Below, piece after piece: positions 32,967 through 38,331 of a stretch of DNA of 64,000 bases. The DNA lies in assembly GCA_017499595.2 (NCBI GenBank), contig CM039007.1:620001-684000 (forward strand), written 5' to 3'. This DNA comes from Psilocybe cubensis. Lineage: Eukaryota. Both the position numbers and the translations under genes were made by a program. Within the stretch, counting starts at the first letter, position 1. Every line of letters starts with the position of its first letter. The notes beneath the pieces were generated by a model. The model was not told where the DNA came from and searched no databases. It saw only the letters and a list, made by a program, of their open reading frames with translations.

Positions 32967-33308
32967 ATGGCCCCTTCATACTACGAGTCACTTTCAACGG
33001 AGGAGGATTCAGAGGAAAAACTCCTTGCCAACACCGAAGACCAGCGTTCAGCCACGCACACTGGCATTACCCGGGAATCATCTAACAAATTCAATTATTT
33101 GTCCTACATTCTCATTTTCCTGAGCATTGTTGCTTCAGGGATTAGTCTTAAAACTACGCTCACCGCCGTTCGCGCTTCCCGCGCCTATTTTGCGCCTACC
33201 GATACTCTGCCACGCCCCAACGTTTTTGTGGGGCTTCCGAAATACCCTCAAGTTTCAAAACACTCTGAAGTCGGATCGCACATGGATCACTCGCATTCTC
33301 GCAACTGA
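32967..33308 (+). CDS. Small single-pass membrane protein with His-rich tail (cluster accessory gene)
   Basis: 113 aa: acidic N-terminus (YESLSTEEDSEEKLL), one hydrophobic helix, LPRPNVFVGL motif, C-terminal HSEVGSHMDHSH. Confidence 0.65.
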   Translation: MAPSYYESLSTEEDSEEKLLANTEDQRSATHTGITRESSNKFNYLSYILIFLSIVASGISLKTTLTAVRASRAYFAPTDTLPRPNVFVGLPKYPQVSKHSEVGSHMDHSHSRN

Positions 33309-33490
33309 CGGTAAGAAATTTGGTATGATGAGTGAAATTATTCTAATTTCTGGTATAGAGAACAAGAGAAGTGACGAATGAAGAGGACAAGTTGTTCTAG
33401 TAATTTCTTGCTTCGACACCATCCAATACGTTCTAAATCGAATTTAAGACCTTCAATCATGATTGCTATCAGGTTCTCTACTGCTGTGTT

Positions 33491-34172
33491 CTAATTGTCG
33501 TAGGTATCCTTATACTGCTCATAGTTACTTCCCATATATTCCCATAATTGCTCCCAGTCCGTGCAACGATGTGCAATATCGATTCCGGTGACTGTCTCTA
33601 CTATCTTTCCATCTGGAGTCCGCTGTTTATGGCTGGCTGGTTCTAGCGTGAGATCGGCATTGCAGAGAAGTATCTGTCGAAGATAAATGAGACAGTGGTG
33701 GACGTGTCCGATATCAAGCATTGTGTAGCCGTCGTTTTGAGGGTTGGATACCATTGCCATCCTGAGGTAGCGATGAAATGACCGCAAACAGTGCAAACTA
33801 TGGAAATGGGAGACGAGGTAATGCTTCTGGTCGTCTGGGTGGTATATGAATCCATCGCCCATCGGTAGTATTGACTCCCATTCCGATTCATTGGAATATA
33901 GACCAAATCTCTCGGCTTTTGAAATTGTCAATGTAGCTGGTTGTATCTGAATTGGGAGTACGGCTTCCGTCTTTGATACTGTTTATGCAATTAGGTCTCA
34001 ACAAGCGAGGTTATACTAGCAAAAAAATGGGCGTACCGGGCTTGAATATTGCCCCAACGTTTAATGAAATGCTAAGTAAGTGCACCGAAAGCGATATAAT
34101 GAGGGCGACTGAGGCAGATATCACTAGGAGCAGAGGGACCTTCACCGTGTGCTTCATAGCGTGGCTGGTCAT
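33491..34172 (-). CDS. UstYa-like / DUF3328 oxidase no. 1
   Basis: N-terminal TM exon, then an intron, then VSHFHSLHCL, HVHHCLIYLRQILLCNADLTLE and HRCTDWE. Both HxxHC motifs are intact. Confidence 0.92.
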
Positions 34173-34795
34173 CACTGCAGTCTGAGAAGAATTTTGATAA
34201 TGAGCTCTCTATATTAATTATTCAACCTATCTTCGATCGCGAGCTTCCAAATTGATATGTGCCCGCTGACCTATCTATGGCTTTACATAACTGGAGAAGC
34301 TGTTGCCTTGAAAATTAAACAGAATTCATTATATTCACCCGTTTTCGCATGTAATCCGAGCTCTCCGTGGGTTATGTCCAGTGGATTACAAGATGTATAT
34401 GACCTTCAAAGTACTTAAAAATAAACTCTCATTACTTACCACTTGGTACAAATGATAGAATCACCGCACCTTCCTCAGGTCATGTTCCCTACGTCCAAAT
34501 TTGTATCAATCCTAGACACGCCGTGTTACATAGTGCAATATTGTGTGTCTTTTTTGGTCGACCGTTCTACCCGCAACCCTCCCCACGTTGACGCTGTACT
34601 CGAGTCCAGGTCTCTATATTTAGACGCCCATGATCCAGGACATGGCAAACGTCGGAGAAACCAGAGGAAGACATGGTCTATCGACCGATTTTTGACCGTA
34701 TTCCCACTATCTAGAGCCTCGTAAAATGTAATTGATGGAAAAATTGTTCAATCATTGTACAGAATCGCAGTGCTTGCTTGCCTCAACCAGTGACA

Positions 34796-35508
34796 ATGTG
34801 GAATAAACAAGCCCTCCTGCTGTCAATCTGCGTAGCCTTAAACATTATAAACGTATCGTACCTGGTATTTGCCTGGTTTGAATGGACCGTTGGAGAGAAA
34901 ACCAAAGAATCCTACTGTCAGTCCACTTTATTACAATGTCCTCGCATATATCTATTGTCTGATTTTTTCATCGACCTTCAGCCTACCTCGGCCACGACTA
35001 TCCTGAGAGTCTACCAATGGATGTCCAGAAGTCAATCATTGTGCCATACGAGGAGAGCGAGATTTATCGCTTTACGGGCATTGAGTCAGATTCTGAGTGG
35101 CTTTCGCTTGCTGGCCCAGAGCAAGGATTCGGATATTTGAGACTTGGACCAGATAATCGCATTTTTGCCGTTTCAATGTTCCACCAAATGCATTGTCTTC
35201 GTATCATCAACCTTGCGATGAGCAAAGAACCCATTGCAACCCCTTCTCACCTACATCACTGTTTTAATTATCTCCGACAAGCAGCACTTTGTGGGGCTGA
35301 TTTATCACTCGAACCAGGAGACTTTGAAGAGAGAGACTTCAGTGACCAAAAGGTTAGTGGATGGCATAAATGCAAGGATTGGAGCCAAGCGTATTCCATC
35401 ATGGAAAATAATTATGCCCAGTGGAAAGAAGCAGAGAATGTATGTCCATTCTACCGTTCATACCTGTTCCTTATAGACTGAGGGAGTTTGTAGGGTCACT
35501 TGAAATGA
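34796..35508 (+). CDS. UstYa-like / DUF3328 oxidase no. 2
   Basis: TM helix, YSYLGHDYP after splicing, GYLRLGPDNRIFAVSMFHQMHCL, HLHHCFNYLRQAALCGADLSLE, HKCKDW. Confidence 0.93.
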
Positions 35509-35559: not shown

Positions 35560-36330
35560 TCATGGATTACTACTTCTAGCTACTTGTTGGAAATTCTCGT
35601 AATTACTCTCTGCAGCCCTGTACACAGCTTCCCAATCTAAACACACATGTGTCACTTCAGGTACTGTCAATCCATGCCCCTTAGACGCCCTCACAGTCTC
35701 CAGTCGTACGTCAGAGTTACATAAAACCATTTGCCTTATATTGTTTATGCAATGATTTGCAACCTGAAGGCGCCTCGTATCCGAAGTGGAATCCGTTAAT
35801 TTGTCGGCATAGAGATTGTCAAGATATTCTCGAAGTATGCCTAGACATCGGACATGGTGTAAAACGCCTAAGGTGAAAGTCCTGTGATTTGGTCCCAGAT
35901 GTACGAGTGCTCTTCCAGAAGGCAAGGTCGTGTTCCACTCAGCACGTCCTTGAGGGGTATCAAATGCATAGTGCACCGTATTCTCCAGAGACATATATAC
36001 TGAATCAAGCGGCGAGATATCCCAGAACATAGGATAGTCATCGCCAACATATGCTGTGAGTACGTAATCAGCAAATAGAGTACATTGTAGATTCCAGGAT
36101 GACGCACTGTATACAGTTTTTGATTTCTCAAAAACCTCATGTCCCGTTCGCCATCCTCCAACCATTTCAATTCTGCCGTAAAACCATAGTCCAAATCCCA
36201 ACATCGGGATTAAAACAGTGGCAAAGAGTTTTCTGGCACCTAAGAATATAATCAATAAAAAACGCTACCACGTAATGATGGTTGATATACTTGAACTCTG
36301 AAAGCATGGCGGCGTACATGACGAGGGCAT
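35560..36330 (-). CDS. UstYa-like / DUF3328 protein no. 3 with variant metal motifs
   Basis: TM helix, YVGDDYP, VHLGPNHRTFTLGVLHHVRCL, VANHCINNIRQMVLCNSDVRLE, HVCLDWE. Probable ATG at 36330 via an intron ending ~36242. Confidence 0.88.
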
Positions 36331-36590
36331 TCCAAGATACAGCAGAGGTTAGAAAATTCGACGTCTCCATTTATAAGTAATCCATTTATTTTTTTGGGAA
36401 CAGTGTATAGGAGAATTGATAACGCGCTACTAATATACAGATGATTGGCCAATATGTGGACTATTGATGATCATTTTTGAAAGCCCATTTCTGTCACTCG
36501 TGTCCACCCCCATATTTCTCAAATCTGACCTTTCCAAAACATTCCACTCAGGATTAATCATATAAGGTATACAAATAACGTCCACACCAT

Positions 36591-36793
36591 CTAGTAGCAA
36601 AGTGCTAGACGACGAGCTTCAATGTCTTCAGCATCACAGTCCACAATTTCCGCTGCGCAAAATAATTTTTAATTTCTGTGGGGAATATTGTAGACGGAAA
36701 CATACTATGACCTGCCACAGGTGCAGAGTTTGCCATCATGGCGAATAACAAGGCAATGGATGCAAGTTTGCAAAAAATACGAACTGGATACAT
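36591..36793 (-). CDS. 49-aa secreted peptide, candidate RiPP precursor: MYPVRIFCKLASIALLFAMMANSAPVAGHTEIVDCDAEDIEARRLALCY
   Basis: Exon 1 is 36793-36706, a 53-nt GTATGT...GCAG intron spans 36705-36653, and exon 2 is 36652-36591. The product has a signal peptide ending ANS-APV, an acidic spacer, a dibasic RR site and C-terminal LALCY. It lies between DUF3328 no. 3 and the But2-like gene. Confidence 0.7.
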
Positions 36794-37333
36794 AACCACT
36801 AGTGTAATGTGCGCCGATAGTTGACGGCTTATTACTGCATTAAATAGATTCTAAAGTAGAAAGGTAGGAAGTACCAGTCATACATACATGGTATAATGAT
36901 GCGATTCTGCTATCCAAAATATGCCGGAAAAACTGTGTTTACAACGGAACCTTGATCACCTTCTATGTAATGGTTTGCCACATGGAGTTTACAGGATTGA
37001 AAGAATGCGCTTCTAACAAGCTTCCCTAACGAAGAACGAAGCAGCAAGCTATGTCTCGGAAGTTTCTATTTACAGGATCTACCAGCCATGATACCTGGCC
37101 AATCATATTCTTGTTATATATTTTTGACTGAATGCAAGATCCGCACCCGTGGGCTGTAGAAGTCATAGTCACTCTAACTCTCTATTTCCACCGGACAACG
37201 GATAAACTTCATTAATAAAGATCTTTCCTACTAAATTGTTGTTATCAAAGGAATAGCTTGTCACTGCTCCTCCGATAAAAATCTCTTAAGTGTTTAGAAC
37301 ATCAGATGTACTCTAATCTGAGATAATGGTTGA

Positions 37334-38331
37334 TCAAGAAAGGACGGTGACATCAGTCTGCATTTGGACAATGTAAATGCCTAATGTTTTGGGCCACTTT
37401 AATCCGGCATCATGTAGCACGAGAATGGTGTAACATTGATAACTCACCGGCCTTTGGCTCAGCACGTTGATCTTGCCAAAAGTCCACATGACATTCCGGG
37501 CTATCAGGCGAACATGCTAATTCAAAGGTGCTGAAGTGATTTGACTGACACAGAAATGGGACCAAGTCGCTTCCTCGGTGGTCGAGATGAATAATCCCAA
37601 ATCGACTTCCTCGTAGTGGGGCGATTTTCCAACTCTCGCCAATGTAGCGAGATATTTCGTGTGACATATTGAGGGTCCAGATATCAATGACAGACCCGTT
37701 TCGAGCAATGGAAGAAGGGTCAAAAGATGTGGTAAGAGGTGGTATTGAGAACGATAGTGAACAATTTTCCATCCCAAAGTCAATATGGCGAAATTGAACA
37801 ACTGTAGAGGTCTGAGTATACCAATATAGCAGTAAGAGTTTTCAATGTATAAAGAGAGTATGGAAGTATCTACCTCATTTGTGATGACAATGCGACGTGC
37901 ATCGGGATAGACTGCACCAATCTTAGCTTTCCGGCTTCGTGTTGTATCTTCCGACATTTGTCGAAGTGGATCATTAGCGTGTAGCTGAAAGGACACCTGG
38001 GGAAAATTGAATATTGGTGGAAAAATGTATTCGGAATGCCTTAGAGCACTCTTAAGGTTGACATAGGTGCTCTGGCGACGTAGCGTCCTCCTGGGCTCTT
38101 CGGTTTCTGCTTCAGACCTCGCTTGATGAATCCTAAAGCGCGTTGAAGTAGAGAAGACAATGAGCGAAAGCAAGGATGACAGAAAAGTTATGATGTATAT
38201 GTAATAAAATAGTGTGTCTGGTTTACAGATCAGTTAGCACTATTGTTTCATGCTCCAGTCTCACTATCAGTTTCTTTACCGTTCTTGGCTTTGTATCCAC
38301 ATGTGTGAGGTCTTTCGAAAGCGAATTGCAT
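37334..38331 (-). CDS. Single-pass membrane protein, But2 C-terminal-domain-like (cluster accessory gene)
   Basis: Spliced product: TM helix, LRRQSTYVNL, PPIFNFP, YPDARRIVITNE, TVQFRHIDFGMENCSL, FLCQSNHFSTFELACS, CHVDFWQD, GIYIVQ. The family is recognised from motifs, not searched. Confidence 0.7.

Follow-up and report, generated by a model that had tools for sequence, protein, structure and literature searches.

A compact DUF3328 (UstYa) gene cluster with a small secreted peptide gene in Psilocybe cubensis: a candidate variant of mushroom RiPP loci

In dikaritin-type clusters, such as those for ustiloxin, phomopsin, asperipin-2a, and victorin, UstYa/DUF3328 oxidases go together with a Kex2-processed repeat precursor (KEP). 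Here, we describe a locus of Psilocybe cubensis that resembles these clusters and departs from them in several respects. It is a block of six genes, A to F, that occupies ~5.4 kb at positions 32967-38331 of a 64-kb stretch of contig CM039007.1, the whole of which we call the window. Genes B, C, and D encode UstYa proteins, gene E encodes a predicted pre-pro-peptide, and genes A and F encode two further membrane proteins. The locus is a candidate for an uncharacterised variant of the DUF3328-type clusters that produce peptides made by the ribosome and modified after translation (RiPPs); the basis of this view is sequence comparison.

As in dikaritin clusters, UstYa genes with a double HxxHC motif adjoin a gene for a predicted signal-bearing peptide with a dibasic site, and the products are predicted to be routed through the secretory pathway. 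In addition, a relative locus from a metagenome (L011, see below) holds a classical repeat precursor beside the same type of UstYa pair. Unlike dikaritin precursors, however, E has a single C-terminal core, predicted to be freed by one preceding cut, instead of many repeats, and this core (LALC-x) has no conserved Tyr. The locus also differs by its two extra conserved membrane proteins, A and F, and by its basidiomycete host. No family of tyrosinases, P450s, methyltransferases, nonribosomal peptide synthetases (NRPSs), peptidases, or transporters was found when 28 long flanking open reading frames (ORFs) were compared with Pfam, a scan that could miss multi-exon genes with short exons; within this scope, the first-pass annotation of the sequence had been right to see none of the first four next to the cluster. 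Given that a repeat precursor and a conserved Tyr both tested negative, the locus is not a strict dikaritin cluster, but by analogy it plausibly works like one.

The DUF3328 enzymes of cyclochlorotine biosynthesis (a binuclear copper hydroxylase, a chlorinase, and a transacylase), among them CctR, provide a second point of reference. According to the available part of the CctR study, DUF3328 proteins are dimeric, lumen-facing copper enzymes anchored in the membrane by one transmembrane helix; the motif HxxHC(x)nHxxHC holds the binuclear copper centre, and each of its His and Cys residues is needed for activity (PMC12435403). B and C are predicted to share the single N-terminal transmembrane helix and the lumenal helical domain, they carry the full motif, and aliphatic C-H chemistry would suit the Leu-rich core of E. 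In contrast, D lacks two of the four His residues that are described there as essential in CctR (PMC12435403, same excerpt), and the cyclochlorotine enzymes act on a nonribosomal cyclic peptide, whereas no NRPS was seen among the 28 flanking ORFs here.

A further comparison is with the 'fungal-RiPP-like' calls that antiSMASH makes in Agaricales, for example in Termitomyces, which are likewise DUF3328-based mushroom loci without a recognised precursor. Our locus differs from these because a particular gene, itself conserved, can be named as precursor candidate, and because two accessory genes are conserved alongside it. The Termitomyces study, in its available excerpt, advises caution with 'fungal-RiPP' calls until a precursor is found (PMC11455885). 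A survey of lichens raises 'a single core peptide' as a possibility, and the part available to us gives no example (PMC12048977); the acalitide paper, in the portion at hand, mentions DUF3328 as background only (PMC10840396). A search of the literature on basidiomycete DUF3328/UstYa genes, whose coverage excluded most subscription journals and all supplements, turned up no account of this kind of cluster or precursor.

Gene content of the cluster

Gene models were built by joining reading frames at introns, and the spliced readings were checked for internal stops. The window is fungal DNA with short introns, and its nearest named proteins are from Psilocybe. The spliced models bear out the six tightly packed genes of the first-pass annotation, the endpoints of the block being the start codons of A (32967) and F (38331). 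The features are as follows:

32967..33308, plus strand: gene A, 113-amino-acid (aa) single-pass protein (ORF, hydropathy, orthologues)
34037..34172, minus strand: first exon of gene B, with the start codon and a predicted N-terminal transmembrane helix (spliced model)
34036..33979, minus strand: gene B intron, 58 nucleotides (nt)
33491..33978, minus strand: gene B exon 2, UstYa domain with HSLHC and HVHHC (PF11807, 66.5 bits)
34796..34916, plus strand: first exon of gene C, with the start codon and a predicted transmembrane helix (spliced model)
34917..34981, plus strand: gene C intron, 65 nt
34982..35481, plus strand: gene C exon 2, UstYa domain with HQMHC and HLHHC (PF11807, 59.9 bits)
36370..35560, minus strand: gene D, whole span
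35560..36264, minus strand: gene D main frame, transmembrane segment and variant UstYa domain, HHVRC ... ANHC (PF11807, 58.0 bits)
36167..36370, minus strand: gene D upstream frame with start codon at 36370, out of frame with the main frame here
36712..36793, minus strand: gene E exon 1, signal-peptide-like N-terminus and phase-1 splice donor
36591..36652, minus strand: gene E exon 2, acidic propeptide, Arg-Arg, LALCY, and stop (homologues in L002-L009, hidden Markov model)
38280..38331, minus strand: gene F exon 1 (52 nt) with start codon at 38331 (read from the sequence)
38279..38218, minus strand: gene F intron 1, canonical, with CTAAC branch site
37874..38217, minus strand: gene F exon 2, transmembrane helix and linker
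37446..37811, minus strand: gene F exon 3, lumenal Cys-containing, possibly distantly But2-like domain (95% to P0014)
37334..37408, minus strand: gene F last short exon, acceptor uncertain (tblastn, P0014 residues 149-171)
32975..38261, no strand: end points of a 5285-nt skip (contigs of three runs)

Eight ORFs were scanned with Pfam at a cut-off of 25 bits for PF11807 (UstYa), and three matched: 33491-33862(-) with 66.5 bits, 35017-35481(+) with 59.9 bits, and 35560-36204(-) with 58.0 bits. They belong to B, C, and D, respectively, in line with the three DUF3328 genes, two canonical and one variant, that had been annotated at first. B (207 aa when spliced) and C (206 aa) are intact and free of internal stops, and both display the family pattern HxxHC(x)nHxxHC, with HSLHC/HVHHC in B and HQMHC/HLHHC in C. 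The pattern is altered in D, where HHVRC and ANHC take its place and two of the four family His residues are missing. Judged by hydropathy alone, B and C are most hydrophobic at their N-termini (maxima of 2.53 and 2.23, respectively), and D is so within its main frame (1.98).

Homologues of D numbered 13 at E<=0.001 out of 92 candidates; all of them carry PF11807, and they were aligned as A1. Its relatives occur in Hypholoma, Crepidotus, and Panaeolus (62-63% identity), Collybiopsis (46%), Gymnopilus (36%), and Coprinopsis (34%). Scanning metagenome contigs with the D alignment yielded at least 599 pattern matches, of which 31 were confirmed, corresponding to 30 loci that were compared with the exons of the window by tblastn. 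Among the fetched loci with a readable motif, 24 of 27 show a replacement of the D type (HxxR/KC ... LxxHC). Because the same replacement recurs at this frequency and the orthologues are well conserved, the His loss of D is, judged by its sequence, the mark of a conserved subtype and not of decay.

The three UstYa proteins are only distantly related to one another (B-C 34%, B-D 25%, and C-D 28% identity), while each has nearer orthologues elsewhere: 52-54% for B (L002-L006 and L008), 57% for C (L001), and 51-64% for D (tblastn). These identities identify B, C, and D as three old UstYa subtypes rather than as a recent tandem array.

Gene A corresponds to the small His-tailed single-pass protein of the first-pass annotation. 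It combines an N-terminal YxxL, an acidic E-E-K-x-L, one hydrophobic segment, the motif LP[RH]P[ND][IV]F[VA]GLP, and a C-terminal His-Ser repeat. Its orthologues include P0033 from a Logan contig (55%), P0034 from Psilocybe cyanescens (46%), and the copies in the metagenome loci (24-28%), which adjoin B in L002-L009. The His-rich tail is kept in all six aligned sequences, and its HSH is invariant. Searches of Pfam gave no family for A, and the ESM Atlas gave no named one. Since DUF3328 enzymes depend on copper, it is attractive to conjecture, but no more than that, that A binds copper in the lumen.

PF09792 is the C-terminal domain of the Uba3-binding protein But2 of S. pombe, and we know of no function of the But2 family in peptide biosynthesis. 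Gene F, initially annotated as But2-like, is predicted to encode a single-pass protein that begins with a short cytosolic piece, crosses the membrane by one helix, and continues as a lumenal domain containing Cys; its spliced N-terminal model has no stop. In the window sequence, no AG acceptor for the last exon reproduces the P0014 junction. Names and fold comparisons lean towards the But2-like label: F is 95% identical to P0014, an orthologue from Psilocybe with the UniRef name But2 C-terminal domain protein; 18 of its 30 nearest ESM Atlas clusters are But2-named (best score 0.97, 228/256 features); PF09792 is present on 33%, 15%, and 47% of the members in the three Atlas clusters shown for F; and the structural TM-score to one But2-named cluster is 0.61-0.69. 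The Pfam model itself, however, misses F, with no PF09792 match for two F ORFs at E<=1 and none for P0014, P0015, or exon 3 of the window at E<=10, and, unlike But2, F is membrane-anchored and located inside a UstYa cluster. Taken together, the comparison points weakly to a distantly But2-like fold. Orthologues of F with 40-51% identity are present in L001-L006 and L008 (tblastn), and the match in L001 spans query residues 6-121, including the transmembrane part.

The peptide gene E

Gene E is predicted to be spliced from exon 1 (36793..36712) and exon 2 (36652..36591) across a 59-nt GT..AG intron (36711..36653), giving a product of 47 aa. The signal-peptide gene of the first-pass annotation is thus real and conserved, but its length is 47 and not 49 aa. 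By inspection, exon 1 is signal-like, with a basic start, a hydrophobic run, and small residues. Exon 2 reads E-I-V-D-C-D-A-E-D-I-E-A-R-R-L-A-L-C-Y-stop and holds one dibasic site and one core, placed at the very C-terminus.

A sliding comparison of L002 with L003, L005, and L006 revealed a conserved block between A and D that resolves into a two-exon mini-gene, in which exon 2 ends ...V-E/D-C-D-A-E-D-x-E-R-R-D-G-A-H-L-A-L-C-x-stop. Homologues of exon 2 were found by pattern search in 8 of the 30 fetched metagenome loci (L002-L009), representing five distinct exon-2 sequences. All eight have a hydrophobic first exon, and in the four loci where it was measured (L002, L003, L005, L006) the intron is 56 nt long and has the same phase. 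A hidden Markov model (HMM) built from the five distinct locus sequences, with the window excluded, picked out the E fragment among 2993 six-frame fragments of the window with an E-value of 5.6e-05, the next best being 4.3. Between L002 and L003/L005/L006, nucleotide identity is 63-65/71 in exon 2, 39-40/56 in the intron, and 29-30/60 in the 60 nt upstream. E-R-R-D-G-A-H-L-A-L-C is invariant among these four loci, and the amino-acid changes cluster in the signal exon. By this sequence evidence E is a real gene, its exon 2 being better conserved than its intron.

In its layout, E looks like a pre-pro-peptide with a predicted Kex2-type dibasic site before a short C-terminal core. Its stop ends at 36591 and the start codon of D lies at 36370. 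This arrangement, with E directly upstream of D and both genes on one strand, recurs in each of the eight E-bearing loci. The first-pass annotation had reasoned from the Tyr-containing cores of dikaritins, and this part of it is not supported: the last residue is Y in the window alone, L in L002, V in L003, L004, and L006-L009, and F in L005. Without a conserved Tyr in the core, the known dikaritin chemistry does not carry over to E.

Several alternative readings of this small region were discarded. The 62-codon unspliced ORF at 36605-36793(-) reads exon 2 in the wrong frame, so that a phmmer search with its 62-aa product says nothing on relatives of E; the sole match of that search among 1.84 billion representatives (P0031) is a translated tandem repeat (six weak stretches) and is spurious. 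A weak match of the E model in L017 (E 0.035) was rejected on inspection. Basidiomycete lipopeptide pheromone precursors have a C-terminal CaaX box and no signal peptide; E does not match this pattern, its Cys being penultimate and its N-terminal exon hydrophobic.

As a separate observation, the 60 nt past the stop of E (region 9536-9590 in L002) are identical at 49-50/60 positions between L002 and L003/L005, a level like that of coding sequence. The corresponding count against L006 is 28/60, made without gaps where L006 has a 1-nt gap. This conserved stretch 3' of the small gene may be an element of the 3' untranslated region.

Linkage in other fungi, haplotypes, and genomic surroundings

Conserved linkage, on which the first-pass annotation had let its reading depend, was found: E, the UstYa genes, A, and F are linked in other fungi as well. 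L002-L006 and L008 contain F(+), B(+), A(-), E(+), and D(+), and L007 and L009 end within B. The Hebeloma-like L001 has D(+), C(-), and F(-), with an F-box-like gene on its right flank, and L010, L011, and L012 contain a C-like and a D-like gene as a pair. Written in the orientation of the window, the genes follow one another as F-[E D]-C-[B A] in the window itself and as F-[B A]-[E D] in L002-L008, which indicates at the level of sequence that the set of members, together with the two sub-units [E D] and [B A], survived rearrangement. A canonical paired with a variant UstYa gene is present in the window and in 10 loci (L001-L006, L008, L010, L011, and L012).

L011 is of special interest for the comparison with dikaritins. 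At 7599-10274, it encodes a canonical UstYa protein (37% to C) and a variant one (45% to D). Directly after this pair comes a protein of 228 aa that has a signal peptide, 15 dibasic sites, and a core motif that was counted 14-15 times, in a repeat without Tyr. This protein is predicted to be a textbook Kex2-processed repeat precursor. It is the sole one among the window and the 30 loci, neither the window nor L001-L009 having a repeat precursor ORF. In the E-type architecture as in that of L011, the precursor gene has the variant, D-type UstYa gene right beside it. Only 6.1% of basidiomycete KEPs have DUF3328 neighbours, and the authors of that survey wondered whether cyclisation is rare in this group (Umemura 2020, PMC7329392, available excerpt).

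Three other ORFs flagged as repeat precursors in the window and the loci proved to be of low complexity. A tandem repeat upstream of A (32272-32506) was considered as a decayed repeat precursor and rejected, as a signal sequence is missing and none of the loci has a homologue. It is a minisatellite with units of ~20, 28, and 99 nt, within which a minus-strand ORF (32286-32480) repeats a peptide.

Evidence on haplotypes comes from X1, X2, and X3, three runs of one study that cover the whole stretch; since intergenic stretches are covered too, these runs behave as DNA. One contig in each run joins 32975 to 38261 and skips 5285 nt. The depth of this skip form is 41.1, 116.6, and 13 in X1, X2, and X3, and the total depth at 32942 is 65.3, 195, and 44; skip form and block-bearing form add up to this total in all three. 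One break point is in gene A, 9 nt from its start, and the other is in intron 1 of F (shorter contig side 58 nt; entry 'between: not known'), and no flanking repeats were found that would explain the skip. Because they fall inside a gene and an intron, the skip fits a deletion, and the block appears to be hemizygous, with a second haplotype that lacks it. Allelic differences were also seen in D. The dinucleotide TG is inserted behind 36262 at full depth in X2 (62.2/62.2) and X3 (22.9/22.9), and in 0/19.2 in X1; by frame arithmetic, this insertion joins the start codon of D at 36370 to the frame with the transmembrane segment and the UstYa domain.

Among the 28 flanking ORFs, five matched Pfam with support, three as fungal-type kinase (PF17667) and two as ABC1 kinase (PF03109). 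Matches below the cut-off were a carboxylesterase start, one more fungal kinase, and an alpha/beta-hydrolase end. The latter marks a fragment, H (38684-39027), of which only the C-terminal alpha/beta hydrolase end is readable (Abhydrolase_6, E 0.012, below cut-off). It recurs in syntenic position, with 61-64% conservation, in L002, L003, L005, and L006, and could represent either a conserved remnant or a gene of small size. Further out, G (40076-41325) is a multi-pass membrane gene without a Pfam family that is syntenic in L002, L003, and L005. G-like genes also adjoin D-like UstYa genes in the paralogous loci L010 (7888-8750) and L013 (8047-8505), and G could belong to the module.

The cluster sits in the 18.7-kb centre of an inverted segmental duplication (19456-27046 / 45721-50475) with arms of up to 1518 nt at 92% identity that contain PF17667 and PF03109 genes. 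A unit with a fungal-kinase gene is duplicated in tandem at 20882-23219 / 24452-26784 (~3570 nt apart, 76-79% identical). These tandem kinase genes are bracketed by a 198-nt direct repeat (18048-18245 / 27739-27936; 93% identical, 9.7 kb apart).

Proposed role, alternatives, and meaning

Starting from gene content, motifs, and the conservation of sequence and linkage, all of which are direct observations, we take as the likeliest reading, at about even odds, that the locus is a conserved, compact Agaricales cluster with lumen-facing products throughout, which turns the product of E into a small modified secreted peptide. We infer every biochemical step of the following course. E would enter the endoplasmic reticulum via its N-terminal signal sequence, and the conserved acidic propeptide V-D/E-C-D-A-E-D-x-E would serve as the recognition part. 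B and C, as membrane-anchored copper oxidases, would act on the C-terminal core LALC-x, the probable site of oxidation being a Leu C-H bond and/or the invariant Cys; since Tyr is not conserved in the core, we do not expect an ether bridge at this residue. A Kex2-type protease would then cut after the invariant Arg-Arg and release the core. D, which has lost two of the four metal-binding His residues and always adjoins the precursor gene here, probably works not as an oxidase in its own right but as a partner or as a subunit that holds the substrate. The conserved lumenal His-rich tail of A may serve to bind copper or pass it on, and F may act as a lumenal adaptor. The agaricomycete RiPP locus of the first-pass annotation gains a conserved peptide gene, linkage, and the pairing in L011, and loses the logic of a Tyr core.

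A more ambitious version of this explanation would see here a new class of mushroom RiPPs, in which canonical UstYa proteins and a His-depleted one encoded next to the precursor gene form a heteromeric copper complex, A is its dedicated lumenal copper donor, F its But2-like adaptor, and a single C-terminal core of five residues (LALC and one variable hydrophobic residue) is cross-linked or oxidised at Cys and/or Leu and released by a Kex2-type cut after Arg-Arg. We offer this version tentatively and think it unlikely.

Several observations weigh against a dedicated pathway for the E peptide. The eight E loci represent about two to three lineages, given that identity is 99% among L003, L004, and L008, 88-93% between these three and L005 or L006, and 72-76% between L002 and all others. 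Synteny also extends to the flanking hydrolase-like fragment H and to G, the membrane gene, which makes the linkage partly plain collinearity. E, A, and B were absent from the 6.2-kb contig of L001 by tblastn, pattern search, and frame reading. Among the window and the eight loci, no aromatic residue is conserved in the core of E, Tyr being absent outside the window, and with a second conserved Cys in its propeptide E could be a simple disulfide-bonded secreted peptide. In the window allele, the 5' end of D is frameshifted by a 2-nt deletion at 36262, and the block appears dispensable since the other haplotype appears to lack it. Finally, UstYa genes are numerous in mushroom genomes, 16 of them being reported for Pleurotus in the available part of PMC8893723.

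The main rival takes up some of these points. It holds that the UstYa genes, A, and F do form a module, the substrate of which is a distant Kex2-repeat precursor or a nonribosomal peptide, and that E is an unrelated small secreted peptide. This is possible, if on the unlikely side. DUF3328 enzymes such as CctR modify nonribosomal peptides (PMC12435403, excerpt), this type of UstYa pair goes with a classical repeat precursor in L011, the contig of L001 carries D, C, and F but not E, and four of the seven members of a KEP type from Galerina, Psilocybe, and Coprinellus have DUF3328 neighbours (PMC7329392, available part). However, E is found immediately upstream of D in each E-bearing locus as well as in the window, it has the parts expected of a precursor (a signal-like exon, a conserved run of acidic residues, an Arg-Arg that never varies, and a short core at the C-terminus), and neither the 64-kb window nor L001-L009 contain a repeat precursor.

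Quite unlikely, in our estimate, is the absence of any common pathway, with fast-evolving secretory-pathway genes staying together by descent in a variable, duplication-rich region. The position between large inverted segmental duplications of kinase genes, the synteny that reaches the neighbours H and G, the haplotype without the block, the frameshift in D, and the abundance of UstYa genes in Agaricales are all compatible with it. Against it, lineages differ in gene order inside the block and yet share its members and the sub-units [E D] and [B A], and the pairing of canonical and variant UstYa genes recurs in 10 loci besides the window; moreover, B, C, and D diverged anciently (25-34% identity) and are not a recent tandem array, and A and E were found only in this context in the data examined. 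Very improbable is a module that mainly serves copper handling in the secretory pathway, to which A (His-rich), E (rich in Cys and acidic residues), and B, C, and D (copper proteins) would all contribute: it would suit the DUF3328 family's copper dependence, the conservation of the His-rich tail in A, and that of Cys and acidic positions in E, but the argument is one of composition alone, no copper-trafficking family matches A or E in Pfam (nor does a named Atlas family match A), and all characterised DUF3328 proteins are biosynthetic enzymes, as stated in the available text of the CctR study (PMC12435403, also the source for copper dependence).

A cluster that modifies the E peptide would matter beyond this locus. 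Hundreds of 'fungal-RiPP-like' calls in mushrooms rest on a DUF3328 match alone, because no precursor could be named for them (PMC11455885, available excerpt). The locus described here offers a concrete candidate family of single-core precursors, with a conserved propeptide, Arg-Arg, and a five-residue core, along with two accessory proteins and a His-depleted UstYa subtype. Secondary metabolism in Psilocybe draws wide interest, and, if our explanation is true, the natural haplotype without the block would be a ready-made knockout, and the copper chemistry of DUF3328 proteins would extend to cores without Tyr and to Psilocybe and its relatives.

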